Shown: positions 8,501 through 50,063 of the stretch, piece by piece
Position numbering within the stretch: position 1 is the stretch's first letter
Layout: each line of letters opens with the position of its first letter
NCBI GenBank assembly: GCA_965262715.1
Contig: OZ253553.1
Coordinates: 2,875,091-2,939,090, forward strand
From: Bdellovibrionales bacterium
GTDB lineage: Bacteria > Bdellovibrionota > Bdellovibrionia > Bdellovibrionales > JAUICD01
DNA: 64,000 nt
Direction of reading: 5' to 3'
Made by a program: the position numbers and the translations under genes
The notes under the pieces: generated by a model
What the model saw: only the letters and a program-made list of their open reading frames with translations
Told to the model about the DNA's origin: nothing
The model's database searches: none

Positions 8501-9742
8501 ATGTGGGAGCAACATTGGATATATCTCTATAAAAACATTAGGGTTCTATTTTATTTTTATTGCTTTATTTTTACCTTTGTTTTGGTAAAAGACCTTTTAG
8601 CTTCTCAAGCAAATGATCCAAACTTTCATCAAGATTCTTGCCGTGAGTATGCTAATGGAGAGGAGAGAATCTTATCTGTGCCTTTTGTTGATATAGGGGC
8701 TTTTCCTATGTCTGTGTTTTCGATGCAATGTCATTATAAAATAAAAAGACAAACAAGTCAGACTTACACGGCTTCCATAGCTTTAGAGTTTTCTCCAAGT
8801 TTGGCGTACTTTAATGGGCCTGTCCCCACAGATCAAGTGCATAAACACTATTTGCAAAAAGTAAAAAATTGCATAGCAAAGAGCAATCATAAAATAATAG
8901 GGGTAAATGGAAAACAAATTCTTATTGATATTGAGGATGCTAAGGTAGCAAGAGAAACCAACTCTTCAACACCTCGGCATTCTATTCAAATCCACACTCA
9001 TTATAATATACCATCTTCTTTTAAGAGCTTTAATGCTTATATTGGTTGCCCTTCGATATTTCATGAAATACTGCACTATTTCTGTTTAGGTGATGAATAC
9101 AGTTTCCATCTTAGTAACTTTTTTCGCTTAGCATCACAATATACAGAAGATAGACTATTGTTTGATTGCCGAGTGACTCAAACAAATAGCATTATGAGTG
9201 ATAGTATAAGATGGTCAATGGTACTTGATGATCCATTAGATCATGGGTTCCAGTGGCGTTCACCTCTTCATCGCGAAGAGCCTACTTTTTTTAATGAAGA
9301 TATAGAATACTCTCTTCTTGATCCAACACATTTTAATGCTATTCTCTATGGAAATTGTTCAAGTAGGGATGATGTCAGACATTATAGAGAATGTATGCGT
9401 TTAGCTTTTCAAGATTCTAGTTTGAATTTTAATTGCTTAAGTCAAAAACATCAATGTGAAAACTTGAACTTACTAGGCCGTGATAAAAACAAAGAGCTTG
9501 CAAGATTATATACTGAATCCTATTTGTTACAATTAGATCTTGGGAGGACAAATGAGGATTTAGTAGAAAATCTTTTTAAACGCTTTTCTTATGATCCCTC
9601 TAATCATGATCTTTCGATATTCCAATATGGATATATAGCGTATGATCATGGATATTTATTATATCTTAAAGAAGGATATGAAAAGGAAATAGAAGAGTTA
9701 AATAGAAGAATCCATAATGTACAAAACTGGCCTGATGAGTGA
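8501..9742 (+). CDS. Secreted zinc metallopeptidase-like protein
   Basis: HEILHYFCLGDEY (HExxHxxxxxDEY), downstream NSIMS Met-turn-like motif, N-terminal hydrophobic segment. Confidence 0.6.
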   Translation: MWEQHWIYLYKNIRVLFYFYCFIFTFVLVKDLLASQANDPNFHQDSCREYANGEERILSVPFVDIGAFPMSVFSMQCHYKIKRQTSQTYTASIALEFSPSLAYFNGPVPTDQVHKHYLQKVKNCIAKSNHKIIGVNGKQILIDIEDAKVARETNSSTPRHSIQIHTHYNIPSSFKSFNAYIGCPSIFHEILHYFCLGDEYSFHLSNFFRLASQYTEDRLLFDCRVTQTNSIMSDSIRWSMVLDDPLDHGFQWRSPLHREEPTFFNEDIEYSLLDPTHFNAILYGNCSSRDDVRHYRECMRLAFQDSSLNFNCLSQKHQCENLNLLGRDKNKELARLYTESYLLQLDLGRTNEDLVENLFKRFSYDPSNHDLSIFQYGYIAYDHGYLLYLKEGYEKEIEELNRRIHNVQNWPDE

Positions 9743-9786
9743 CAGTATGAACCGTTAGACTTACTGCCGGAAAGTGGTCAGAGGCA
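9740..9786 (+). repeat. 3' half of the nested-hairpin repeat family
   Basis: TGACAG..GTTAGACTTACTGCCGGAAAGTGGTCAGAGGC matches the reverse complement of 24597-24643. Confidence 0.7.
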
Positions 9787-9805
9787 GTTTTATTGAAAAT
9801 AGCTT

Positions 9806-14177: not shown

Positions 14178-14465
14178 ATTGAAGGTTCAGCTCAGTTAGC
14201 ACTTAAATTCTATCGTAATTCTCAAAAATTACATTTATACAGTCCTCATAAAGACCAATTTAAAAGAGCTGCTTCAAGTATTGTACTTAACTTAGCTGAA
14301 GGCAGTGCTAAACCAACAGCTAAAGATCGCAGAAAAATTTATTATATTAGCCTTGGCTCTTTAAGAGAAGTACAAGCTATATTGAATATGATAGGCCATG
14401 TTGACTTAGCAAAACAGGCAGATCAACTAGGAGCTTATTTATATAAACTATGTCAAAATACTTAA
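14178..14465 (+). pseudogene. Four-helix-bundle (23S rRNA IVP/TIGR02436-like) protein, 5'-truncated; absent from the ORF track
   Basis: Manual translation gives ..QLALKFY..DQFKRAASSIVLNLAEGSAK.TAKDRRKIYYISLGSLRE..; in-frame TAA at 14175 and no ATG. Confidence 0.75.
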
Positions 14466-16203: not shown

Positions 16204-16437
16204 AGCCTTGTTGCACGAATATTGACGCTATTACATTGGGTTACCATTAGCGTCTTTTGGCAGGCTTGTGAACTAACTCAGGCCAGAGCATTATGAGGTA
16301 AAGATTTTAAAAGAACTTTTATTCTATAATTAATTATAAAAGTAATAGAAATTCATTGCACGGGGGTTGCCTGTTGCTAGTGAATAAGCCTGCCAAAAGA
16401 CGCTGCTAATACATACAAATATTTGTGCAACAAGGCC
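16204..16437 (+). mobile_element. IS903-type MITE, structured family copy
   Basis: IRs AGCCTTGTTGCACGAA / TTTGTGCAACAAGGCC; perfect 19-bp inner stem 16249-16267/16386-16404; core shared with the 37082, 49843 and 60311 copies. Confidence 0.85.
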
Positions 16438-22303: not shown

Positions 22304-23971
<1,668 letters not shown>

Positions 23972-23989
23972 CTATTACCTTTAATTTAT

Positions 23990-24301
23990 TTAATTGATAA
24001 TCCCTAAAACATCATCTTCACGAATCATCAAATATTCCTCTCCCTTTAGCTTTAATTCAGTGCCAGCATATTTGCTAAATAGAATCTGATCACCGCTCTT
24101 AACCTCTAAAGGCAGATATTTTCCATGTTCAGTTTTTTTACCAGAACCAACAGCTATAACACGTCCCTCTTGAGGTTTTTCCTTAGCCGTTTCTGGAATG
24201 TAAATACCCCCAGCTGTCTTCTCCTCTTCAGATAATCGTTGTATCAAAAGGCGATCATGAAGAGGTCGAACCCCAACTGTAGTCGTCATTGTATTGTCCA
24301 T
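23990..24301 (-). CDS. groS: Co-chaperonin GroES
   Basis: RPLHDR, TAGGIYIPETAKEKP. Confidence 0.98.
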   Translation of the reverse strand: MDNTMTTTVGVRPLHDRLLIQRLSEEEKTAGGIYIPETAKEKPQEGRVIAVGSGKKTEHGKYLPLEVKSGDQILFSKYAGTELKLKGEEYLMIREDDVLGIIN

Positions 24302-24524
24302 AACTTATCCTCCCTATAAAAATAATAAAATTATCCAACTATCAGCAATATTGTGATGTGACATGCTAATGTCAAGGGTAAAAACATCTTTTTTCATAAA
24401 TTTTATCTAGACAAGCAAATATCTTGCCGGAAAACCACAACAAGTCATTCATAGTAAGTCACAGCCTTATTTAAGCTTTAAATCAAATTATAATGACTTT
24501 TCAAAATGATATGATGTGCCATGC

Positions 24525-24974
24525 TGTTTCCCTAAAAATAGTCTGGCCTCTGTATCACTAAAGTGCATCTCGTCTGTGTTTCCCTAAAAATAGTCTGGCC
24601 TCTGGCCACTTTCTGGCAGTAAGCCTGACAGTTTACACTGTCAGCAAATAGCTTACTGCCTAGAAAGCCTGACTATTTTTAGGAGGGAGATACTCTTCGC
24701 TTCTTTACAAAATGTTAAGGAAATTGAGCTAAAGTGATTTTTTAGGAAAAAAGATTCTTCAGTTCTGTTTCACTAAAATGCATCTCGTCTGTGTTTCCCT
24801 AAAAATAGTCTGGCCTCTGGCCACTTTCTGACAGTAAGCCTGACAGTTTACACTGTCAGCAAATAGCTTACTGCCTAGAAAGCCTGACTATTTTTAGGAG
24901 GGAGATACTCTTCGTTTTTTTACAAAATGTTAAGGAAATCGAGCTAAAGTGGTTTTTTAGGAAAAAAGATTCTT
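24525..24974 (-). repeat. Two tandem copies (215-bp period) of a nested-hairpin element plus partial tails
   Basis: Hairpins at 24583-24683 and 24798-24898 are near-identical; the duplication includes the last codons of grxD. Confidence 0.9.
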
Positions 24975-25265
24975 AAGCTCTCCTGACTCATACATTTCTG
25001 TCATGATGTCAGATCCACCAATTAACTCTTTGTTCACATAGAGTTGAGGGATGGTTGGCCACTGACCATAAGCTTTAATGCCTTCTCTTATCTCTGGGTC
25101 TTCTAATACATCCACATCTTGGAAGTTGACATTGAGTTCTTTAAGAATAGCTACTGATCTAGCTGAAAAACCACATTGTGGAAAATTAACAGTCCCCTTC
25201 ATAAATAACACAACATTGTTTTTATCTAAAATTTCTTGAATTTTTGATTGGGTGTCTTCACTCAT
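24957..25265 (-). CDS. grxD: Monothiol glutaredoxin Grx4
   Basis: FMKG..PQCGFS, WPTIPQLY, GGSDI. Confidence 0.96.
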   Translation of the reverse strand: MSEDTQSKIQEILDKNNVVLFMKGTVNFPQCGFSARSVAILKELNVNFQDVDVLEDPEIREGIKAYGQWPTIPQLYVNKELIGGSDIMTEMYESGELKNLFS

Positions 25266-25289
25266 TTTTTACCTCTTTCTCTGTTTTAT

Positions 25290-25511
25290 TTATTTTATAT
25301 TAATGGTTAATGCATGTATTTCCCCACTTTTAAGTTGCTCTTCAAAAACACTCATAACTAAGCGATGAGAGGCAATTCTCGACATTTTTGATAGCTGGCT
25401 ACAAGATATAGTAAGTTGATAATGGTTATTTGTTCCCGTTAAGTCAATAACCTCCATCTTAGTATTAGGATATTGTTTCAAAAAATGCTGTTTAACTTCA
25501 TCACTTTGCAT
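25290..25511 (-). CDS. bolA: BolA/IbaG family protein
   Basis: DLTGT.NHY, SRIASHRLV, IHAL; adjacent to grxD. Confidence 0.88.
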   Translation of the reverse strand: MQSDEVKQHFLKQYPNTKMEVIDLTGTNNHYQLTISCSQLSKMSRIASHRLVMSVFEEQLKSGEIHALTINIK

Positions 25512-25545
25512 ACAAAGCCTCTTGTTATCAACTTTAAAGTAGTGT

Positions 25546-25845
25546 TTATAAATAACTGTGTATTTTATTTTTTTCAAGAACAAAATCCACTGATGTTTTT
25601 GTCCCTTTTTTTATGTTACAACCTTGACAAGAAATAACTATATTTAATTTTGATGAATGGCCTCCTCTTGCAAGAGGTAGTTTATGATCCATTGTCAGCT
25701 CATCGGTAGCAAAGGTTTTTTGACAATAATAACAAATACCTTCTTTGAGCTTTTGTCTCCACCATTTTGTAGACCTTAATTGTTTCGCTTTAAGTCTCTC
25801 CTTTTGAAGATGAGACTTTGATTGGGGTTTATAAAAAGTTGTCAA
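25546..25845 (-). CDS. HNH endonuclease
   Basis: CYYC..LTMDH..PLARGG.S...NIV.SC..CN..K. Confidence 0.9.
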   Translation of the reverse strand: MTTFYKPQSKSHLQKERLKAKQLRSTKWWRQKLKEGICYYCQKTFATDELTMDHKLPLARGGHSSKLNIVISCQGCNIKKGTKTSVDFVLEKNKIHSYL

Positions 25846-26083
25846 AACACAAATCCTTAATTGTTACTTCTAGAGACTCTATTTTATTAGCACTTGCTTT
25901 TATAGGGATATTATTATACATTTAGCTATCTTGTGTGTTTTTATATATCTCATGATGCTGAAAATGTCAAAAAACAAATAGCTATTTCAATGATTATGAT
26001 GAGGTGATATAATAATATGAATACAAGTCAAAATGAGTGGTACATCTAAAAAATAAAATTCATATATGAGGGTGTTATAATCA

Positions 26084-26683
26084 ATGCAAAATCAAAGACA
26101 TGCAGACTATGTCATAGAAGACCTTAAAAAAGAAACACAAGGCCTTTTAGAGACAGCAGCTCTTACAACATCTTTTGACAAGTTTATGGCTTGGGGGCGT
26201 AAAAACTCTTTATGGCCTCTGCCTTATGGTACAGCTTGTTGTGGGATTGAATTGATGTCAGTCCTAGGTCCTAAATATGATCTGGCTCGCTTTGGCGCAG
26301 AGGTTGTAAGATTTTCTCCAAGACAATCTGATCTTTTATTAGTGGCAGGAACCATCACAGAAAAAATGGCTCCAGTCTTAATTCATATTTATAAACAAAT
26401 GTTGGAACCTAAATATGTGCTTTCTATGGGAGCTTGCGCTAGTTCAGGTGGTTTTTATAGGGCTTATCATGTTCTCCAAGGTATTGACAAAGTGATTCCT
26501 GTAGATGTGTATGTTCCCGGATGCCCTCCTACACCTGAGGCTGTCCTTGACGGAGTTATGGTTTTACAAAAGATGATTGAAGCTAATAGACCTCGTCCAT
26601 GGAAAGACAACTGGAAGGATACTTGGAAGCCTCATGATTATCAAAAAAGGCAAGATCAAGTGGAATCTTCTCATACAGAATAA
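26084..26683 (+). CDS. nuoB: NADH-quinone oxidoreductase subunit B
   Basis: TACCGIE, SPRQSD, MGACA, VPGCPP. Confidence 0.97.
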
Positions 26684-26713
26684 TCTTAAAGCAATTACAT
26701 AAGTAGGAATGAA

Positions 26714-28450
26714 ATGAATCATCTAGATGAGATAAGGAAAGATTTAACACATAAGTTTGATGTTTCTCAATTTCAATTTCAAACAGAATGTGATGATGAT
26801 GTTCTGACAATTCCATGCGATCAAGTCTATGGTGTTGTAGAGCATTTTAAAAAAACAAAAAGATTTGATTTCTTGATGGATGTATGTGGAGTTGACTTAT
26901 TAGAGCACCCTCATTTCACGTCATCACAGGCAAATGGTTCTACTCAGTCATCAGATGTCTCACAAAAAGGACGATTTCATGTAGTATATCACTTCTTCTC
27001 ATCTCAGAACTTTCATCGCTTGCGGCTCAAAACAAAATTACCATCTCATCCTAAGGTCAAATCAATTACTCCTTTATGGAAAGGAGCTAACTGGTTTGAG
27101 AGAGAAGCTTATGATATGTTTGGTATTGAATTTGACGGACATCCTTATTTAGAAAGATTGCTAACGCATCATGAATTTAAAGGGCATCCTTTACGTAAAA
27201 ATTACAGTTCAGATCAGCAGCAGCATTGCTATTCTGTTAAGCCACTTCATTTTGAAAACGATGCTACATACATTAAAGACCCTCATAAAAACTTTGTTTC
27301 TTTAAACATTGGACCTTCACACCCCGCCACTCATGGAACTTTAAGGATTATGGCAGAACTGGATGGAGAGGTTGTTCATCGAGCTAATGTAGAAATTGGT
27401 TTTTTACATCGCTGTTTTGAAAAAATGGCTGAGACTCATCATTACAATCAAGTGATTCCCTATACAGATAGACTTAACTATTGTTCTGCTCCAATGAACA
27501 ATGTAGGTTATTGCAAAGCTGTTGAAAGATTGCTAGACGTTGAAGTTCCTCCAAAAGCGCAAGCTATTCGCATTGTTTTGTGTGAACTAAGCCGTATTAT
27601 TGATCACATGGTGTGTATTGGAGCTAATGCTGTAGACTTAGGAGCACTCACAAGCTTTCTTTATTTGTTTAATATGAGAGAGATGGTCTATGAGCTTTTT
27701 GAAAAACTTTGTGGCGCTCGATTGACGGTTTCTATGACACGTGTTGGGGGCATGGCCAACGATCCACCTGATGGTTGGTTTGATGATGTTTTAGAAACAT
27801 TGAAAAAAATTGAAAAAGGCATTGAAGAAATTGATACACTACTAACTCATAATAAGATTTGGATGAAAAGAACAAAAGGGATTGGCCAAATCACAACAGA
27901 AGAGGCTATTGCTTTTGGATACACAGGTCCTTGCCTGCGTTCTACTGGCATGAATTTAGATTTAAGAAAGGTTATTGGCTATTATGGTTATGACCAACTT
28001 GACTTTGATGTACCTGTAGGAACTTGTGGAGACGTATATGATCGCTACTTGGTTCGTTTAGAAGAAATGAGGCAGTCCATTAAAATTATTAAGCAGGTGG
28101 CAAATAATATTCCAGAAGGAGACTTTACCATTCGTGATAAGCATATTGTGCTGCCAGACAAAAAAGATGTTTATGGAAATATTGAAGGTTTAATGAACCA
28201 CTTTATGTTGGTTATTAAAGGATTAAAACCTCCTCAAGGAGAGTTATACGATATGACAGAGGCTGCAAATGGAGAGCTTGGTTTTTATTTGATCAGTGAT
28301 GGAGAAGCAAAGCCTTATCGTTTGAAAGTCAGGCCACCTTGTTTTGCTATTTTTCAATCCTTTGCTAAAGCTATTGAAGGCAGCCTCCTATCTGATGTGG
28401 TTGCCATTCTTGGAAGCATGAATGTTATTGCAGGAGAGCTTGATAGATAA
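26714..28450 (+). CDS. nuoCD: NADH-quinone oxidoreductase subunit C/D fusion
   Basis: EREAYDMFG, GHPLRK, GPSHPATHG, terminal GELDR. Confidence 0.96.
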   Translation: MNHLDEIRKDLTHKFDVSQFQFQTECDDDVLTIPCDQVYGVVEHFKKTKRFDFLMDVCGVDLLEHPHFTSSQANGSTQSSDVSQKGRFHVVYHFFSSQNFHRLRLKTKLPSHPKVKSITPLWKGANWFEREAYDMFGIEFDGHPYLERLLTHHEFKGHPLRKNYSSDQQQHCYSVKPLHFENDATYIKDPHKNFVSLNIGPSHPATHGTLRIMAELDGEVVHRANVEIGFLHRCFEKMAETHHYNQVIPYTDRLNYCSAPMNNVGYCKAVERLLDVEVPPKAQAIRIVLCELSRIIDHMVCIGANAVDLGALTSFLYLFNMREMVYELFEKLCGARLTVSMTRVGGMANDPPDGWFDDVLETLKKIEKGIEEIDTLLTHNKIWMKRTKGIGQITTEEAIAFGYTGPCLRSTGMNLDLRKVIGYYGYDQLDFDVPVGTCGDVYDRYLVRLEEMRQSIKIIKQVANNIPEGDFTIRDKHIVLPDKKDVYGNIEGLMNHFMLVIKGLKPPQGELYDMTEAANGELGFYLISDGEAKPYRLKVRPPCFAIFQSFAKAIEGSLLSDVVAILGSMNVIAGELDR

Positions 28451-28673
28451 GCTTTATACAGAAGAGGGCTAGCAACAGGCTTAAAACTTAAAGGCTTTGA
28501 TATCGAAAACTCTCACTTTTTTACTTCTTAAGGAATTCTACTTACAACTTGAATCCAAAAATCATTATGTAAGTTTTACATCATTATGTAATTTTTACAA
28601 TTTAAGACGTTTATCAATCATATTTATTGATAAATGTTCCTTTTCATGTTATTCACTCCTAATATTACTTTTT
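28329..28673 (+). repeat. 345-bp target-site duplication, left copy
   Basis: Identical by eye to 32758-33102 and abuts the IS terminal CCTGAC. Confidence 0.92.
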
Positions 28674-29025
28674 CCTGACTTCGACGGTTTAAACTTATAA
28701 GTTACTGGGATCATTGGATGATACATTACATCATAGGCACTACAATTGATTTTTAGTTATGTATTAAGTGTATTTTTATTCAATAAGATAAGGTGTTGTA
28801 GAGTGCTTAAGTCCCATAATCTGATAGATTTTCAGAGCTTCCTTACTTATATTTGAAGGTATAGAGTACTTTCTGTTATTGGTTTGATCTACTAATAAAC
28901 TATGCTGTACATGGATTAAAGCATTTCGTATAATTTCCGGTGAACAGGCTTCATATTGTATCTTCACTCTGTAAGCTAAGTGTCTTATACAGACTAAACA
29001 GATAAAAGCAATGGCTATGTGTGCT

Positions 29026-30945
29026 CCTGACTTCGACGGTTTAAACTCATAAGTTACTGGAATCACTAGATGATACATTACATCATAGGCACTACAATTG
29101 ATTTTTGGTTATGTATTAAGTGTATTTTTATTCAATAAGATAAGGTGTTGTAGAGTGCTTAAGTCCCATAATCTGATAGATTTTCAGAGCTTCCTTACTT
29201 ATATTTGAAGGTATAGAGTACTTTCTGTTATTGGTTTGATCTACTAATAAACTATGCTGTACATGGATTAAAGCATTTCGTATAACTTCCGGTGAACAGG
29301 ATTGGTATTGTATCTTAATTCTGTAAGCTAAGTGTCTTATACAGACTAAACAGATAAAAGCAATGGCTATGTGGGCTTTGATTCGATCTGATGTCCAGTG
29401 AAATATAGGACGTATTTTTAAATCATGCTTAGCTATCCGGAATGTTTCTTCGACTTGCCATAACCCCTTATATTGGCTAATAATGTCTAAATCATCCATA
29501 TCTTTGAGGTTTGTTATGACTCCAAACAAACCATCCCACTTTTGATCTTCTTTGACTCGATTTTCATTGACTGAAAGCTTTTGTTTCTTGCCTGTGACTT
29601 TTAAATACTTCTTATAACCGTAATTGTTTAATAAAGTCTTCACATCTTGAGCCTTTGAGAGTTTCTTAACTAAACTATCTATAGTTTGTTGACGATCATG
29701 TCGATCTTTCTCCGCTCTCTTATAAGAATAACAAACTATCACTTTCCTCTTATTATCTTTATCTTCTAATGATTGAATCTTGAAACCTTCTTGTTTACTG
29801 ACAATTTTGTACTTTGACTTATCTAATACAAGCTCTTGTTTTACTTTTGGTAATTTCTTAAGCTTAGCTCCTACAATATAATGAAGATTCTCATCTTCTA
29901 GTGCTTTTAAATTATCTTCACTTAACATTCCTCTATCAGCGACATAAATAGCTTGTTCTAAGTTATATTTAGACTTCATCTCTTTTATCACTGGATTTAA
30001 GGTATGACCCTCGAAGATAGCACCCGGGAAAGTCTCGTAACTGACAGGAAAACCTTCTTTGGTCACAACGACTGCTAAACACACTTGAGATTCTTTAAAC
30101 TTAGCATCTTTACTGTAACCTCTTTGTCTTAAATCATCTTCAATAATTGATTCAAAATACAGTGTCGTACAATCAAAAAACAAAACTTTCAAAGGCTCTT
30201 TAAAAACCTTTTGTGCCACTTGACCTGCCAGTCTCTTTATCTTATCTATCCTTTTGCTATCTAAACGATCCATCATGCGATAAATCTTCTCTAACGAAAT
30301 ATGAACTCCAAAATCCTCTTCTAAAAATCGACTGCTCTCTCTTTTACTTTGAGGATTAGCTATCCGAGCCATCACTGTATGAAATAAAACCCAATGTGAT
30401 GAATGATAACGACTCACTGGTAAAATGCGATCTAAACCTAATTCCTTGTACATAGCTCCATAAACCTCATGAATACCTACAATGACTCTTTGATCTTCCC
30501 TTAGTTTCTTAAGATCTACTTTTAAGGGTTTATTGCAATGACGAAACTTGGACTCAATCACTTGTTTAGAAATCTCTTCCGGAGCAAAAAAAGATAATTG
30601 ATTTTCATTTGTTAGTTTAGCTTTGATGAATTCTCCAAGCTCTTGAAGACGAAATAGCTCATCCTCATCTTGAGCCACTCCGACATGACGGATGATCTTT
30701 TGGCGAACTTTATTGCCATAACGGATAGAATCAACGATCTGAACTGACTGCCTTGGACTGTTTGGTGTGCTTTTGATTCTTACAAACATAAAAATAATTT
30801 AATGCTTATTAAAAAAAAAGTCAAAATAAAAATAAAAATAATCTGACTTGGTGTGTTACTAGGCACTACATCGAAAACTTACTCCAAAATCCTATAACCA
30901 TCAATGTTACAAAACCAATACCAAACTTAAACCGTCGAAGTCAGG
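29026..30945 (-). mobile_element. IS1634-family element (inner, complete, 1920 bp)
   Basis: Both IRs present and transposase intact. Confidence 0.92.
29128..30789 (-). CDS. IS1634-family DDE transposase
   Basis: FFDCTTLYFE, VADRG, Y..LWQVE..FR..K..L.IRPIFH. Confidence 0.93.
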   Translation of the reverse strand: MFVRIKSTPNSPRQSVQIVDSIRYGNKVRQKIIRHVGVAQDEDELFRLQELGEFIKAKLTNENQLSFFAPEEISKQVIESKFRHCNKPLKVDLKKLREDQRVIVGIHEVYGAMYKELGLDRILPVSRYHSSHWVLFHTVMARIANPQSKRESSRFLEEDFGVHISLEKIYRMMDRLDSKRIDKIKRLAGQVAQKVFKEPLKVLFFDCTTLYFESIIEDDLRQRGYSKDAKFKESQVCLAVVVTKEGFPVSYETFPGAIFEGHTLNPVIKEMKSKYNLEQAIYVADRGMLSEDNLKALEDENLHYIVGAKLKKLPKVKQELVLDKSKYKIVSKQEGFKIQSLEDKDNKRKVIVCYSYKRAEKDRHDRQQTIDSLVKKLSKAQDVKTLLNNYGYKKYLKVTGKKQKLSVNENRVKEDQKWDGLFGVITNLKDMDDLDIISQYKGLWQVEETFRIAKHDLKIRPIFHWTSDRIKAHIAIAFICLVCIRHLAYRIKIQYQSCSPEVIRNALIHVQHSLLVDQTNNRKYSIPSNISKEALKIYQIMGLKHSTTPYLIE

Positions 30946-32601
30946 AATAAGATAAGGTGTTGTAGAGTGCTTAAGTCCCATAATCTGATAGATTTTCAGA
31001 GCTTCCTTACTTATATTTGAAGGTATAGAGTACTTTCTGTTATTGGTTTGATCTACTAATAAACTATGCTGTACATGGATTAAAGCATTTCGTATAACTT
31101 CCGGTGAACAGGATTGGTATTGTATCTTAATTCTGTAAGCTAAGTGTCTTATACAGACTAAACAGATAAAAGCAATGGCTATGTGGGCTTTGATTCGATT
31201 TGATGTCCAGTGAAATATAGGACGTATTTTTAAATCATGCTTAGCTATCCGGAATGTTTCTTCGACTTGCCATAACCCCTTATATTGGCTAATAATGTCT
31301 AAATCATCCATATCTTTGAGGTTTGTTATGACTCCAAACAAACCATCCCACTTTTGATCTTCTTTGACTCGATTTTCATTGACTGAAAGCTTTTGTTTCT
31401 TGCCTGTGACTTTTAAATACTTCTTATAACCGTAATTGTTTAATAAAGTCTTCACATCTTGAGCCTTTGAGAGTTTCTTAACTAAACTATCTATAGTTTG
31501 TTGACGATCATGTCGATCTTTCTCCGCTCTCTTATAAGAATAACAAACTATCACTTTCCTCTTATTATCTTTATCTTCTAATGATTGAATCTTGAAACCT
31601 TCTTGTTTACTGACAATTTTGTACTTTGACTTATCTAATACAAGCTCTTGTTTTACTTTTGGTAATTTCTTAAGCTTAGCTCCTACAATATAATGAAGAT
31701 TCTCATCTTCTAGTGCTTTTAAATTATCTTCACTTAACATTCCTCTATCAGCGACATAAATAGCTTGTTCTAAGTTATATTTAGACTTCATCTCTTTTAT
31801 CACTGGATTTAAGGTATGACCCTCGAAGATAGCACCCGGGAAAGTCTCGTAACTGACAGGAAAACCTTCTTTGGTCACAACGACTGCTAAACACACTTGA
31901 GATTCTTTAAACTTAGCATCTTTACTGTAACCTCTTTGTCTTAAATCATCTTCAATAATTGATTCAAAATACAGTGTCGTACAATCAAAAAACAAAACTT
32001 TCAAAGGCTCTTTAAAAACCTTTTGTGCCACTTGACCTGCCAGTCTCTTTATCTTATCTATCCTTTTGCTATCTAAACGATCCATCATGCGATAAATCTT
32101 CTCTAACGAAATATGAACTCCAAAATCCTCTTCTAAAAATCGACTGCTCTCTCTTTTACTTTGAGGATTAGCTATCCGAGCCATCACTGTATGAAATAAA
32201 ACCCAATGTGATGAATGATAACGACTCACTGGTAAAATGCGATCTAAACCTAATTCCTTGTACATAGCTCCATAAACCTCATGAATACCTACAATGACTC
32301 TTTGATCTTCCCTTAGTTTCTTAAGATCTACTTTTAAGGGTTTATTGCAATGACGAAACTTGGACTCAATCACTTGTTTAGAAATCTCTTCCGGAGCAAA
32401 AAAAGATAATTGATTTTCATTTGTTAGTTTAGCTTTGATGAATTCTCCAAGCTCTTGAAGACGAAATAGCTCATCCTCATCTTGAGCCACTCCGACATGA
32501 CGGATGATCTTTTGGCGAACTTTATTGCCATAACGGATAGAATCAACGATCTGAACTGACTGCCTTGGACTGTTTGGTGTGCTTTTGATTCTTACAAACA
32601 T
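30907..32601 (-). CDS. IS1634-family transposase of the outer copy; C-terminus reads into the inner copy's IR
   Basis: Identical to 29128-30789 except one D/N change and the tail PDFDGLSLVLVL. Confidence 0.9.
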   Translation of the reverse strand: MFVRIKSTPNSPRQSVQIVDSIRYGNKVRQKIIRHVGVAQDEDELFRLQELGEFIKAKLTNENQLSFFAPEEISKQVIESKFRHCNKPLKVDLKKLREDQRVIVGIHEVYGAMYKELGLDRILPVSRYHSSHWVLFHTVMARIANPQSKRESSRFLEEDFGVHISLEKIYRMMDRLDSKRIDKIKRLAGQVAQKVFKEPLKVLFFDCTTLYFESIIEDDLRQRGYSKDAKFKESQVCLAVVVTKEGFPVSYETFPGAIFEGHTLNPVIKEMKSKYNLEQAIYVADRGMLSEDNLKALEDENLHYIVGAKLKKLPKVKQELVLDKSKYKIVSKQEGFKIQSLEDKDNKRKVIVCYSYKRAEKDRHDRQQTIDSLVKKLSKAQDVKTLLNNYGYKKYLKVTGKKQKLSVNENRVKEDQKWDGLFGVITNLKDMDDLDIISQYKGLWQVEETFRIAKHDLKIRPIFHWTSNRIKAHIAIAFICLVCIRHLAYRIKIQYQSCSPEVIRNALIHVQHSLLVDQTNNRKYSIPSNISKEALKIYQIMGLKHSTTPYLIPDFDGLSLVLVL

Positions 32602-32757
32602 AAAAATAATTTAATGCTTATTAAAAAAAAAGTCAAAATAAAAATAAAAATAATCTGACTTGGTGTGTTACTAGGCACTACATCGAAAACTTACTCCAAA
32701 ATCCTATAACCATCAATGTTACAAAACCAATACCGAACATAAACCGTCGAAGTCAGG

Positions 32758-33102
32758 TCAGGCCACCTTGTTTTGCTATTTTTCAATCCTTTGCTAAAGC
32801 TATTGAAGGCAGCCTCCTATCTGATGTGGTTGCCATTCTTGGAAGCATGAATGTTATTGCAGGAGAGCTTGATAGATAAGCTTTATACAGAAGAGGGCTA
32901 GCAACAGGCTTAAAACTTAAAGGCTTTGATATCGAAAACTCTCACTTTTTTACTTCTTAAGGAATTCTACTTACAACTTGAATCCAAAAATCATTATGTA
33001 AGTTTTACATCATTATGTAATTTTTACAATTTAAGACGTTTATCAATCATATTTATTGATAAATGTTCCTTTTCATGTTATTCACTCCTAATATTACTTT
33101 TT
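32758..33102 (+). repeat. 345-bp target-site duplication, right copy (includes the nuoD 3' end)
   Basis: Identical by eye to 28329-28673. Confidence 0.92.
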
Positions 33103-33170
33103 AAGATGCATAAAACTTATACGTCAGAGGCTTGCCTTGAGAGGCGTAATTCATTTTGGTAAAATAATAT

Positions 33171-33335
33171 GATTTCCTTAACATGATGTAAAAAAACGAA
33201 GGGAATCTCCTTACTAAAATGCATCAAGCTTTCTAGGCAATGACCTATTTGCTGATGGCGTAAGACCATCAGGGTCATTGCCAGAAAGTCGCCAGAGGCT
33301 TGCCTCGAGAGGCGAGATGCATTTTAGTGAAAAAA
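33171..33335 (+). repeat. Nested-hairpin element, diverged copy
   Basis: Leader and bulges match the reverse complement of the 24.6/24.8-kb copies; stems ACTAAAATGCATC/GATGCATTTTAGT, GGCAATGACC/GGTCATTGCC and CTGATGG/CCATCAG. Confidence 0.85.
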
Positions 33336-33660
33336 GACGAGATGCATTTTAGTGAAAAAAGACGAGATGCATTTTAGTGAAAAAAGACGAGATGCATTTT
33401 AGTGAAAAAAGACGAGATGCATTTTAGTGAAAAAAGACGAGATGCATTTTAGTGAAAAAAGACGAGATGCATTTTAGTGAAAAAAGACGAGATGCATTTT
33501 AGTGAAAAAAGACGAGATGCATTTTAGTGAAAAAAGACGAGATGCATTTTAGTGAAAAAAGACGAGATGCATTTTAGTGAAAAAAGACGAGATGCATTTT
33601 AGTGAAAAAAGACGAGATGCATTTTAGTGAAAAAAGACGAGATGCATTTTAGTGAAAAAA
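33311..33660 (+). repeat. Tandem array, 14 x 25 bp (GACGAGATGCATTTTAGTGAAAAAA)
   Basis: Exact 25-bp period with no spacers; the first unit begins GGC. Confidence 0.97.
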
Positions 33661-33674
33661 GAAAGGATGAAAAA

Positions 33675-37081: not shown

Positions 37082-37304
37082 GATCTTATTGCATAAAAAT
37101 TTAAGAATGAGATTTGTGAAAGACTTCTGAAATAGGACTAGGCTAGCGGCTTAGGGTAAATATCTCTTAAACTATTTTATTCTATAATAAAATCTTAAAA
37201 TAATAGCAATACAAGGCGCGGGGGTTGCCTAGAGCCTATGGAAGATGCCTGACTTAATTCTCTAATCTTTTATATACTTCCTTAAATCTTTGTGCAACAA
37301 AGCC
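37082..37304 (+). mobile_element. MITE-homologous module forming the upstream end of the IS
   Basis: Internal degenerate IR GATCTTATTGCATAAA, then AGAATGAGATTTGTGA..TTTTATTCTATAATAAAATC..GGGGTTGCCT as in 49843-50063. Confidence 0.8.
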
Positions 37305-44070: not shown

Positions 44071-45153
44071 TTATAATTTATGTTTAATACCTTCCTTTAA
44101 AGAACCTAATATCTGTTTTGCGCGAGATAAAACTTGATCATAAGTCAATATAGTTAAACTGTGAAAACTTGAATTTAATATTCTATACGCCTCAAACTCT
44201 TTATCTTTCCATTCATTTGATCTTCCAAATATCAAGGTACATCTTGGTTTTATTACTTTTATATTTTCAACTCTTTCTGAAAACTTCTTACTATTTGACT
44301 CTTGTTCAACTTTATAAATATAATTAGTAGCTTGTATAATAGCTTTGATTAAATCAGTAGATGGTATAAAATTATCATGATCTTTACTTTTTGCCCAAAA
44401 TGGCAATTCATCACTTGGTCTTTTTATCTCTATAATGTCTAAAAATCCATCATAAGCTTGCACAAGATAATCTGATATGTTTTGAGTATCTATTTGCCGT
44501 TCATCTACAATCTTTATAAAATCTGTTCCTAATATCCAATCATTTTCCTTAAACCATTTTTGCCAATTATACTCTGATAATTCTTTACTTAACATTTCTT
44601 CAAATTTTTCAACAGCTTTTTTTCTTTTAATATTTTGTATCGCCAATGAAAAATCTTTAAAGATTCTATTTAATTCATCTTGACTTAGTTTATTCAATTC
44701 TTGAATCACTAAACTTTTATCTTCAAAGTTAAGTTTTGTAAGTTCTATAATAAATTTTGGAATATTTCCACTAATCAAAGAAAAAGAAGATTCGCCCCAA
44801 GGAATTCCATGTTCTTTATAAAGGGTTTTTAAATATTTGAGATTATCAAAAAGTATCTTTATTTCACCAGATCTTAACTCGAGCTTAACTCCTTCTCCAC
44901 TTTTTAATTTATTGAGTGGAAACTTGTTATATTCTTCCCATTTATCTGAGGGTGATTTTCTTTGAAAGACAAAGAGGCCTCTTACACAAGCTTTTTGATC
45001 TTTAGGGTTGCTTACAATTGATGGTTTAAAAATCAGACGAGTTGTTTTAGTTTCTCTCAAAATTATAGGATCTGCTTCTGCTGTATTTAATGATGTTGAT
45101 CTTGTCTTTATTTTTTCCATAAAATTGCTCTCTTTAAATTGTTCTATACTCAT
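44071..45153 (-). CDS. sduA: Shedu anti-phage nuclease (DUF4263)
   Basis: E..WQ.WF..N.WI.G, DY, IIEIKRP, AI.Q..NY, LIFGRS, ILTYD. Confidence 0.85.
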   Translation of the reverse strand: MSIEQFKESNFMEKIKTRSTSLNTAEADPIILRETKTTRLIFKPSIVSNPKDQKACVRGLFVFQRKSPSDKWEEYNKFPLNKLKSGEGVKLELRSGEIKILFDNLKYLKTLYKEHGIPWGESSFSLISGNIPKFIIELTKLNFEDKSLVIQELNKLSQDELNRIFKDFSLAIQNIKRKKAVEKFEEMLSKELSEYNWQKWFKENDWILGTDFIKIVDERQIDTQNISDYLVQAYDGFLDIIEIKRPSDELPFWAKSKDHDNFIPSTDLIKAIIQATNYIYKVEQESNSKKFSERVENIKVIKPRCTLIFGRSNEWKDKEFEAYRILNSSFHSLTILTYDQVLSRAKQILGSLKEGIKHKL

Positions 45154-45160
45154 TTTTTAT

Positions 45161-45997
45161 CTATAGGTTTTTTTGGTTTTTACTGATTTGTGAAATGGCT
45201 GCTTGTAAAACTTGCCAGCTAATTTTTGCCGTTGCAATATCAGGGAGAAATTCTGATAATGCTTGTTCGTATGGATGAATATAATTCCTAAAATCCCTTA
45301 AGGAATGACTGTGTTTTTTTACATCTAAATCTAATAATCTAACTTCGTAGGCTACATCAATCATATTTTTTAAGCTCCAATCTTGAAAACCTTTAACTTG
45401 TCCATTTTTATCTTTAGGGCTAGATTTTGCTTGATTAAACTTTTGTTTACTTTGACTCCTAGTTATTGCATCAAGCAATAATCCCTCAAGGGTACTGCCA
45501 CATAAAAATATCACTGATAAAGGCATATTTCCTGTAAGTGCTTTTTGAACTTCATCAATTCTTTGATTAAGGACTTTTTCTAATTGTTCATTTTCTATAT
45601 TGAGCTTTTGCAACTCAATCCGGCCAAAATCTTTTTTTAAAAAATCTTCTTCTGATAATGGCCTAGTATTGTCTTGATTTTTTCCTTGAAGTCTATAAAT
45701 GCTTTTATAAGCTCTTTCTTTATCTTCTTCATCAACATTTCCAACTGATTGAGCATATTTTAGTAAAGCTTCCAGTACTTCACCAACAATTTTATCTGGT
45801 TCTATATCCCAAAAAGCTCTTAAGCGATTCATTTTAGACTTCCCATTTTTTAAATACTTTCTATCATCAATATTTATGCTATGCTTTTTAAAGAATTGAG
45901 AAAACTTAGCATTAGTAAAACTTTCAGTTACAACATACCCTGCTCTATTAAATAATTTTTCAAAAAGTTCTGTTTCATGTAATTCTAGATTAGCCAT
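45161..45997 (-). CDS. AbiJ-like N-terminal domain + HEPN-like protein
   Basis: E.LF...GYV...F....F..FF and SK..RLRAFW N-domain; GS.LEG.LL and RNYIH C-domain. Confidence 0.6.
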   Translation of the reverse strand: MANLELHETELFEKLFNRAGYVVTESFTNAKFSQFFKKHSINIDDRKYLKNGKSKMNRLRAFWDIEPDKIVGEVLEALLKYAQSVGNVDEEDKERAYKSIYRLQGKNQDNTRPLSEEDFLKKDFGRIELQKLNIENEQLEKVLNQRIDEVQKALTGNMPLSVIFLCGSTLEGLLLDAITRSQSKQKFNQAKSSPKDKNGQVKGFQDWSLKNMIDVAYEVRLLDLDVKKHSHSLRDFRNYIHPYEQALSEFLPDIATAKISWQVLQAAISQISKNQKNL

Positions 45998-47460
45998 GTT
46001 TTAACCTTACTTGTCCATTGATGAGTTTTGGTAATAACATATCTCGCAAATTTGTCAAAGTTCTAATTTGAACTTGATTATAAAATATTTTATTAAAAAG
46101 TGGTTCTGCTAAATGACTAAACTTTTCAGCTTTTTCTTTTAATGGTGCATTAATTTTCAATTTTTTAAATACTGCTTTATTAATTTCCAAAAAAGTGGAG
46201 CCATCTACATAACTTTTTATATAATCCATTTTAGATTTTAACCATAAATAAATAAATTCTTTTGAATAGCCTTTATCATCAATGATTGCTACATATCCCT
46301 GGTTTATTGCTATTGGATGTACAGAAAAAGCAAGATAACCTATTGGAGCCCTTGATGACAAAAGCAATGTTTTAGCAGGTAATAATCCCGAACTAATTTC
46401 TTTTAACCCTTTCTTTGTAATTTTTTTCACTGTATCAAAAAGATACATATCTTTGTTTCTTGATAAGTCTTTGGGAGTTGTCCACAAAATTTTACCATTC
46501 CAATATGCTGGATTCTTTGTACTTGGAGTTGTTCCATCTTTTACCGATAATATGTCACCCAGTGACTTTTCTTTAAAATTAACCTCATGATCTTCGATGA
46601 ACCACTTTCTAAATAAACACTGAGCCATATCCTCCAATGTTCTGTTTTGACGACGCAATAACTCTATCTTATCATCCAAACTCGACAATACCTCCGCAAT
46701 CCTCCTCTGCTCTTCAATGCTTGGCAAAAACACTTTAAGGTTTTTGATCTCATCAGTTTGAACTCTCTGTCTTCCTGAAGACCTTGTCATAGATTTAATA
46801 GCAAAATTTCTAAAGTAAGAAGATGTAGCAAGATAAAACAGAAAATGCTTATTTGTTAAATTTGACTTACTCCTTATAACAATAAATTCTGTCGATCCAA
46901 ATCCTACTTCATTCTTTTCCAAAATATCAACAAAAGCTGTTTTTTCGTTTTCCAAATAAGGTGTTATTCTGGCTAATAAGGTATCACCATTTCTAAACTT
47001 TGATCCTCCTTTATAGATGCCTTTTGTGTAATTGGAGATTTTTCTTTGAAAAGAAGGCAAGTCATCCATTAAAACTTTCTTTCTAACTTTATCTTTTGAG
47101 ATGTCTTCTGATGGGTTAAAGGTAACAACATCACCCAACTTCACCGATCGCGAATCTCTACGATAAAGCACCTTTCCTCGACATTTGATTTGCTCCTTCA
47201 AATCTTCTGAAGTTACAGCAGAATAGGCCACCACATCAAAGAAAAAAGGCAAATTTGTCTCCTCGTCCAAATCGAATTTTACCTTTAAGGCCAAACTCTC
47301 ATCAATCTTTTTGCCCTTAAGAGCAATATCAATGTCGGAGGCCTGCTTGTAAGTGTCCATTGCCCTAGAACCAAACAAAATAGCCTCATCCACGTCATTA
47401 GTAAGAGGCTAAAACATTAACAATCTCATTGATCTGCTTATCTGAAAGACCATATTTCAT
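45990..47460 (-). pseudogene. hsdS: Minimal nucleotidyltransferase (MNT) fused in frame to a type I RM specificity subunit, with a frameshift near the 5' end
   Basis: ATG 47460 gives MKYGLSDKQINEIVNVLASY* then shifts to LFGSRA..SDIDIA; HsdS repeats PSIEEQRRIAEVLSSLDDKIE and LRDMLLPKL. Confidence 0.8.
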
Positions 47461-49842: not shown

Positions 49843-50063
49843 GGCTTTGTTGCACAAAGGTTTTAGAATGAGATTTGTGACAGACTTGGAGTAAGCGTAA
49901 GGCCAGTGCCTTATGAGATAGGTTTTGTATAAGATATTTTATTCTATAATAAAATCATAAAACCAAAATAGTACATGGCACGGAGGTTGCCTGCTGCTTA
50001 TGGAAGAAGCCTGTCACAAATCTCTTGCACACAAACTAGAGTTAGTGTTTGTGCAACAATCCC
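49843..50063 (+). mobile_element. IS903-type MITE, structured family copy
   Basis: IRs GGCTTTGTTGCACAAA / TTTGTGCAACAATCCC; inner stem 49870-49887/50007-50024. Confidence 0.87.

Follow-up and report, generated by a model that had tools for sequence, protein, structure and literature searches.

The DNA analysed here is a stretch of 64,000 nucleotides (hereafter the window) from a Bdellovibrionales bacterium (assembly GCA_965262715.1, contig OZ253553.1, positions 2,875,091 to 2,939,090), and it carries copies of a ~148-nt repeat which is dispersed through the same genome. The family is a real, undescribed, genus-level selfish repeat: the stems of its three-way junction stay paired while their sequences change, and copies have been gained and lost between close genomes. 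With moderate confidence we regard it as a non-autonomous, genus-restricted mobile repeat that would spread by nicking and joining of single strands, one break being fixed and the other loose, in a manner similar to that of REPINs (repetitive extragenic palindromic, REP, doublets forming hairpins) and bacterial interspersed mosaic elements (BIME). An earlier note on this DNA had suggested an undescribed structured non-coding RNA or single-stranded DNA (ssDNA) mobile element. The ssDNA mobile element is supported, whereas a functional non-coding RNA is unlikely because there are hundreds of scattered copies in either orientation, which are gained and lost and carry DNA-type loop and wobble signatures. 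No description of the family was found in the literature searched, which covered few subscription journals and no supplements, although the element behaves like a known kind (REPIN/BIME).

The genomes compared are the source genome (G000, 2.94 Mb), a second genome of the same genus (G001) and the relatives G002, G003 and G004. A profile made from 53 seed copies gave 457 matches in G000, 285 of them full-length, and a family of ~450 copies genome-wide thus replaces the five copies and fragments of the earlier note. By crude calls of open reading frames (ORFs) 424 of the 457 matches lie mostly outside ORFs and 33 mostly inside. In G001, 47 matches were found in six 20-kb segments (120 kb) picked regardless of the element. 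The carriers are 3 of 41 relatives by BLAST and 3 of 151 genomes of the order by a covariance model, the latter search scoring 20 candidates per genome so that diverged homologues could be missed; they are G000, G001 and three small contigs of G004. On these contigs (C1, C4 and C11) rplN is 98% identical to that of G000 and 75% to that of G004's genus mate, and the DNA is ~88-92% identical to G000; judged from these identities they are probably mis-binned DNA of a G000-like species. Viral contigs gave one chance match within a phage ORF and otherwise none, metagenome contigs gave 0 matches, and in a scan of genome contigs the matches listed fell on one Bdellovibrionales chromosome, which says nothing on other taxa. 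The distinct full-length copies collected number 352 (152 from G000 and 200 from the parts of G001 examined), with a mean identity of 70%.

The fold and its strand

The element consists of a 45-nt leader followed by a three-way junction, which has an outer stem of 13 bp, a long stem of 16 bp with one bulged A, a T-rich bulge, a tip stem of 8 bp and, directly between the long and the outer stem, a side hairpin of 5 bp. The earlier note had described nested hairpins with GCCAGAGGC as a linker; this sequence is the side hairpin, whose AGA loop is invariant and whose stem covaries, and the nested hairpins thereby become a three-way junction. Two other sequences given there as bulges or linkers, GCTTTCTAGGCA and TGCCAGAAAGT, pair together as arms of the long stem and leave a single bulged A.

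A hand-set structure of 42 pairs was evaluated on 53 diverse copies. In this set 95.6% of the cells pair (0 of 500 shuffles), compared with 34-48% in slid controls, and 32 of the 42 pairs vary on both sides; structure is indeed kept over sequence, as had been proposed. Cells with two-sided change number 425 versus 133 +/- 11 in shuffles, but the shuffle ignores relatedness and the stems are a limited set of recombining alleles, so the cells overcount events. DNA folding of the window copies gave z = -8.3 for copy B and z = -8.0 for copy C, with 0 of 200 shuffles equally stable. The variable parts of the element are paired and the loops are invariant; the near-invariant unpaired marks are the bulged A (98%), the AGA loop (97-99%) and the leader box (95-100% except at one Y). 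An inverted repeat in the leader shows no covariation (107 of 500 shuffles were as high), and the leader is therefore taken as a sequence signal.

The TTTC..TAA box of the leader recurs inverted at the right end, where it also forms part of the outer stem, and the two make an imperfect inverted box of ~10 bp. An ordinary miniature transposable element with inverted repeats (MITE), mobilised by a DDE transposase acting on imperfect terminal inverted repeats of ~10 bp, would have such boxes at both ends, and three right-left junctions and the abundance of DDE transposases fit with it as well. A scan of 153 copies for target duplications of a fixed length from 2 to 10 nt found none, however, the ends of the insertion sequences (IS) inspected, those of the multicopy transposase families of G000, do not match (flank consensus compared by eye), and a MITE need not keep its internal junction. 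This explanation is very unlikely and already largely refuted.

The fold carries marks of one strand. Among 14,569 paired cells 94.2% are Watson-Crick and 2.3% G·T, and distinct isolated G·T pairs are in excess over A·C (81 versus 45, p = 0.002), which marks the leader-first strand. RNA helices are usually richer in G·U. The tip cap GCGNNAGC occurs in 197 of 352 copies on the leader-first strand and in 0 on the other, and of 313 tips parsed 239 are GNNA, divided into 167 GNRA and 72 GNYA. GCGNNAGC is described as an extra-stable DNA mini-hairpin with a weaker RNA counterpart, RNA favouring GNRA (PMC13037366, in excerpt). The folding energy of the whole element barely separates the strands (220 and 246 of 352). 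From the few G·T pairs and the GCGNNAGC tips on one strand only we infer that the leader-first strand probably folds as ssDNA.

Strong covariation, the placement of most copies outside ORFs and terminator-like matches on both strands (6 versus 0.7 expected) could also be seen in a functional structured RNA or in a regulatory element, such as a terminator or mRNA stabiliser, kept for the host. Such an element is hardly compatible with positions that are not conserved between close genomes, with copies that break rpn genes and repeats of CRISPR (short palindromic repeats, clustered and regularly interspaced) and with the occurrence of both orientations, and we consider it extremely unlikely; side effects of the element on transcription are likely. 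No Rfam match was found, with 0 in the window and a best E of 0.075 over ten other copies.

Gain, loss and the right end

The element is gained and lost between close genomes. Two sites on contig C1 of G004 are filled and are empty in G000, the rpsQ-rplN locus has four copies in G000 and none in G001, G002 and G003, and the groES locus is empty in four of four relatives. At the rpsQ site shared by G000 and G004 the flanks are the same and the inner stems differ, which means that stem modules are exchanged in place. Copies also lie within two types of CRISPR repeat and within rpn genes, and in one rpn gene the element has taken the place of ~174 nt; both loss and duplication of the target are seen at the sites.

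Some of these surroundings deserve description. In a Cas12a-type CRISPR array (G000:C1:2607210-2608400) the same insertion of two elements interrupts consecutive repeats close to one end, the spacers between these repeats being different, and related units are found 86 kb off (G000:C1:2693650-2694210). The second CRISPR repeat type holds three more copies (476742, 482119 and 490459), with ~24 nt of the repeat duplicated. A second family of long hairpins, ~166 nt (e.g. C1:2127921-2128089; L002:1859-2035), has 130 matches in G000, 38 of which are directly followed by the element; none were in the G001 loci examined. A short form of this second family lies inside the right end of an IS30-like transposase family of G000 (27 members, e.g. 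C1:2113737-2114690) in 8 of the 8 copies listed.

Rearrangements around the element are anchored at its right end. Among 246 full copies 75 have their upstream flank once more behind the element, compared with 4 of 246 controls, and in 35 of 38 distinct cases this repeat, ~20 to >140 nt long, begins within 8 nt of the right end. The partial tRNA copies obey the same right-end rule. The right end lies within 6 nt of the 3' end of a gene or tRNA in 14 of 153 copies and the left end in 0 (p = 0.002 versus the 7-160 nt class); in our reading DNA was deleted here from the right end as far as the next essential feature. Tails of further arm units follow 24 of 130 copies in G000 and 79 of 249 in G001. 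The first tail unit has a foreign arm in 17 of the 24 and 72 of the 79, and about half of the tails (13 in G000, 43 in G001) start at the side loop; in the window foreign-arm tails are seen at copies A and B. Slippage cannot make foreign tails; it may have lengthened the perfect array of copy C. One left flank is common to seventeen scattered loci with different right flanks, a form of flank sharing which as a test for left-flank transport is suggestive only.

These products match those of the BIME amplification model, and for this reason we favour a nick-and-join process. In the BIME model a nick is followed by extension at the 3'-OH and by an attack on the 5' end that is held (PMC3333891, in excerpt), and clusters of REPINs are described as repeating flanks and nesting (PMC3116915, in excerpt). 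In the scheme proposed here the leader-first strand would fold as ssDNA, and a protein supplied in trans would recognise the junction and the TTTC-like boxes at both ends. A nick would be made at or next to the right end, and the right end would be joined to a second, loosely specified break. With this break upstream a tandem copy of flank and element would arise; with the break downstream DNA would be deleted up to the next essential feature; a break in the side loop or stem of another copy would give foreign tails and mosaics, and one at a distant site a new insertion with a variable left flank.

It should be noted that a number of observations weigh against this reading. The GNRA form of 167 of the 239 GNNA tips is one which RNA favours too. 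Many of the 38 duplications are internal array units, and 28 of them reach the left end as well, as a tandem of flank plus element requires. Right flanks, too, are common to copies in ten groups, most of them within other repeats, and the evidence for left-flank transport is therefore mixed. Fraying of the right ends extends over ~5 nt, and no consensus is seen at the second break. Replication strand bias is absent (114 of 224 clusters), the skew here being weak, and an excised or circular form was not seen in the contigs, the only material examined. Finally, the RAYT model NF047646 gave 0 matches in G000 and G001 (the control was found in 8 of 14), and the Y1 transposases (PF01797) are represented by a single IS200-type gene, in G000 only.

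The same junction geometry would be produced by a process like that of short interspersed nuclear elements (SINE), in which transcripts ending at the right end are reverse-transcribed at nicks to give exact 3' junctions together with variable 5' ends and duplications. The frayed right ends with 0-3 extra bases, the left-truncated copies that come after an intact right end (47 of 114 adjacent pairs of G001), the common GNRA tips and the group II intron and retron reverse transcriptases of G000 agree with such a process. G001, however, is copy-dense (47 matches in 120 kb) and has no RVT_1 match in its one contig, 90% complete; the sense bias is weak (75 versus 53, p = 0.06), 11 of 29 hand-listed duplications are antisense to the upstream gene, and only 2.3% of the paired cells are G·T. 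We find a bacterial counterpart of SINEs quite unlikely.

Enzymes and candidate partners

The absence of a cognate HUH enzyme, reverse transcriptase or integrase, which the earlier note had remarked on for the window, extends to the genome level, where none was found either; G000 and G001 score 90-93% complete, and the absence of a gene is thus not proven. Reverse transcriptases number 3 in G000 and 0 in G001, IS110 recombinases (PF02371) 0 in both carriers. IS91 Y2 transposases (PF04986) gave 0 in five genomes, controls likewise being without match. Each carrier has one GIY-YIG frame of 645-653 codons, a length which points to UvrC, and no small GIY-YIG gene beside the repeat. DUF559 is found once in each genome and GxxExxY in none, and no convincing dif site for XerCD was found. 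A conserved tyrosine recombinase of ~186 aa, consisting of the catalytic domain only, is encoded at L019:1417-1980 in G001 and L020:1459-2016 in G000, with a single XerD-like gene elsewhere in each genome. At L025:1282-3054 in G000 a retron St85-type effector and a reverse transcriptase are fused in one frame of 590 aa.

A cassette recombination site of the attC type, read by a tyrosine recombinase, would have a bulged single-strand fold, and the rpn and four-helix-bundle genes of G001 are often flanked by a right end on one side and a left end on the other. The integron integrase IntI (TIGR02249) was under cut-off in five of five genomes, no control genome being over cut-off either, and the junctions are imprecise. 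Multicopy and single-copy genes of G000 adjoin the element equally often (37 of 241 and 264 of 1743), and a general role for gene cassettes in G000 was rejected on this ground. One same-orientation site after each cassette gene, the rule for attC, was not seen. We regard an attC-like site as most improbable.

Four-helix-bundle (Avd-like) and Rpn genes are the only enriched neighbours, and both may be cargo. The four-helix-bundle genes (PF05635; TIGR02436) number 19 in G000, 14 in G001, 19 in G004 and 0 in G002 and G003; their protein has a weak match to PDB 2GSC, and the PF05635 proteins are presumably homologous to Avd. The element lies within 450 nt of 12 of the 19 genes in G000 (control 75 of 432 small ORFs) and of 14 of 14 in G001 (control 22 of 75 ORFs), and in nine of nine of the longest G001 matches a same-strand left end is found 336-390 nt after the domain start. 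Cassettes of PF05635/TIGR02436 genes with heptamer arms, like the ORF-bearing intervening sequences of 23S rRNA, are transposase-free mobile hairpin units. The cassette in G001 is followed by the element at a fixed place; the cassette in the main contigs of G004 is without it, and the element has no heptamer arms of its own.

The element could be the cis-acting end of a transposase-free ssDNA mobility system, in which the cognate factor would be the multicopy Avd-like protein (alone or with Rpn or a host nuclease) and the arrangement heptamer arm - gene - heptamer arm - element would be the long, gene-bearing form. If so, the element would move itself and whatever lies to its left, and the unexplained PF05635 family would gain a concrete DNA substrate. 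Against a partner role stand 17 four-helix-bundle loci from the main contigs of G004 without the element, and several matches that are genes broken by it; the paralogues may descend from one composite, and we know of no catalytic activity of these proteins. In addition, 14 of 16 rpn genes are element-adjacent in G001, those of G000 not. We hold this form of the system to be a tentative and rather unlikely one.

Rpn as a specific partner was rejected, as 0 of 19 intact genes in G000 have a right end upstream and 16 loci in G003 are without the element. RpnA is reported to be a non-specific endonuclease whose cuts can prime synthesis (PMC5350276, in excerpt), and on account of this Rpn stays a candidate helper. 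The noncoding flanks of the G003 rpn loci (L278-L293) share hairpin repeats of their own, unrelated to the element. A search for a domesticated single-copy partner, in which none stood out, was made on roughly one fifth of G001; 93 of the 310 ORFs adjacent to the element had no match in G000.

With no known mobiliser common to both carriers it may be asked whether a dedicated enzyme exists. The stable fold might stall forks or be cut by host nucleases, after which template switching and repair would give duplications, deletions and paired double changes, and gene conversion would swap modules. Template switching is reported to be able to create and maintain stems with multi-base compensatory changes (bioRxiv 2021.04.15.439925, in excerpt). 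The sites show target loss as well as duplication, no single-copy partner stood out, and the orthologues that are element-adjacent in both genomes (32 of 151) are mostly housekeeping genes. Copying from arm to arm should, however, erase bulges, yet the bulged A, the T-rich bulge and the AGA loop persist, and the unpaired invariant leader, the tip motif on one strand and the one-sided anchoring are left unexplained. Host repair alone is in our opinion an unlikely explanation.

The window and comparison with known systems

Copies A and B (minus strand) and C (plus strand) are located where the earlier note had placed them, and the stem variants quoted there are correct (Table 1). Of its partial copies, the one between two converging genes is detected by the model, 24525-24552 is a tail unit, and 33122-33164 is seen only as a repeat of C. 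The tail of repeated arm units at copy C is an array of 14 x 25 nt which is present in the assembly and stops at a probable ribosome-binding site, that of an ankyrin-repeat gene (ATG 33675). A comparison of four contig sets over 22400-28300 gave no interpretable joint, and among the sequencing runs listed there was no RNA run with the element.

Table 1. Element copies, tails and flanks in the window. Scores of A-C are from a covariance model whose alignment included copies A and B.
Feature	Position	Strand	Remarks
Copy A, full element	24577..24724	-	164.7 bits; second unit of a 215-nt tandem duplication (upstream flank + element + tail)
Copy B, full element	24792..24939	-	164.5 bits; leader 24899-24939, three-way junction 24798-24898, right end
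Copy C, full element	33172..33334	+	145.6 bits; extra small hairpin unit within side arm
Side hairpin of copy B, invariant AGA loop, third junction arm	24811..24823	-	
Tail unit past right end of B	24766..24791	-	outer arm of C type, not B's own
Two tail units past right end of A	24525..24576	-	one arm C-type, one A/B-type
Upstream flank of B	24941..24978	-	37 nt, 0 nt from left end; extends into 3' end of glutaredoxin gene
Second copy of B's upstream flank	24726..24763	-	joined 2 nt past right end of B's tail
14.0 perfect 25-nt right-end units	33313..33662	+	C's own arm + 13 more
Degenerate right-end fragment, just upstream of C's leader	33122..33164	+	80% repeat of C's right part
Degenerate part of a copy (model positions 83-145), flanked by two converging genes	9740..9796	+	E 3.7e-5

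The window holds other features as well. Two tandem copies of a DDE transposase (29128-30789 and 30907-32601) and a truncated third end occupy 28673-32900, enclosed by a direct repeat of 300 nt (28328-28627, 32757-33056) which would be of unusual length if it were a target duplication. A third family of dispersed intergenic repeats, whose inverted ends are GC-rich, is found at 16280-16378, 37138-37263 and 49900-50025 and has >100 related segments genome-wide. A Shedu (SduA) gene lies beside a type I restriction specificity subunit fused to a nucleotidyltransferase domain (44071-47393), and a fragment of a four-helix-bundle gene (14187-14423) has no element within 450 nt.

In defining features the family is set apart from REPIN, MITE, attC, Ssn/NTS, bridge RNA and Rfam families, and it works most like REPIN/BIME. 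REPINs and the REP/BIME of E. coli, in the published excerpts, are likewise imperfect hairpins found in hundreds between genes, with bulges that matter, and they form tandem clusters including flank, nest in their own kind, make mosaics and give products which fit a rolling-circle-like amplification (PMC3116915, PMC3333891). Unlike REPINs as portrayed there, the element has an asymmetric leader and a three-way junction in place of two inverted REPs and one fixed end rather than cuts spread on both sides; it lacks an invariant GTAG foot, and a RAYT was found in neither carrier. The Ssn nucleases with their NTS/SRM hairpins offer a second parallel, with a high-copy hairpin that is read as ssDNA on just one strand, many type IV pilin genes in the host and a cut next to the hairpin (PMC11893778, in excerpt); according to the same excerpt they differ in having a small GIY-YIG gene, and the present element is five times longer with stems that tolerate replacement. 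Recognition of a hairpin in single strands and the lack of a fixed target duplication are shared with IS200/IS605 (PMC6006769, in excerpt).

The one-ended movement of IS91/ISCR with capture of flank also resembles that proposed for the element. Unlike both IS200/IS605 and IS91/ISCR, there is no autonomous copy with the element's ends, no tetranucleotide target and no lagging-strand bias seen. The bridge or seek RNAs of IS110 differ in that no IS110 recombinase is present and the variable parts are paired, with no variable unpaired guides. The cyanobacterial small dispersed repeats (SDR) and the Rickettsia palindromic elements, compared by description only, also keep their structure by compensatory change, show nested insertion and have an unknown mobiliser, but their size, fold and host differ.

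The element reshapes the genome of its host by duplicating the ends of genes, trimming intergenic DNA and disrupting CRISPR repeats. The spread of most small bacterial hairpin repeats is unexplained outside hosts with RAYT or Ssn. The present family supplies natural variants by the hundred, which covary strongly and have a defined strand and active end, and the usual enzymes were not found in the genomes that carry it. With these variants, oligonucleotides and two candidate proteins would allow a direct test for a new ssDNA-processing activity. If there is no dedicated enzyme, the family illustrates the extent to which a structured selfish repeat can arise through host repair alone.

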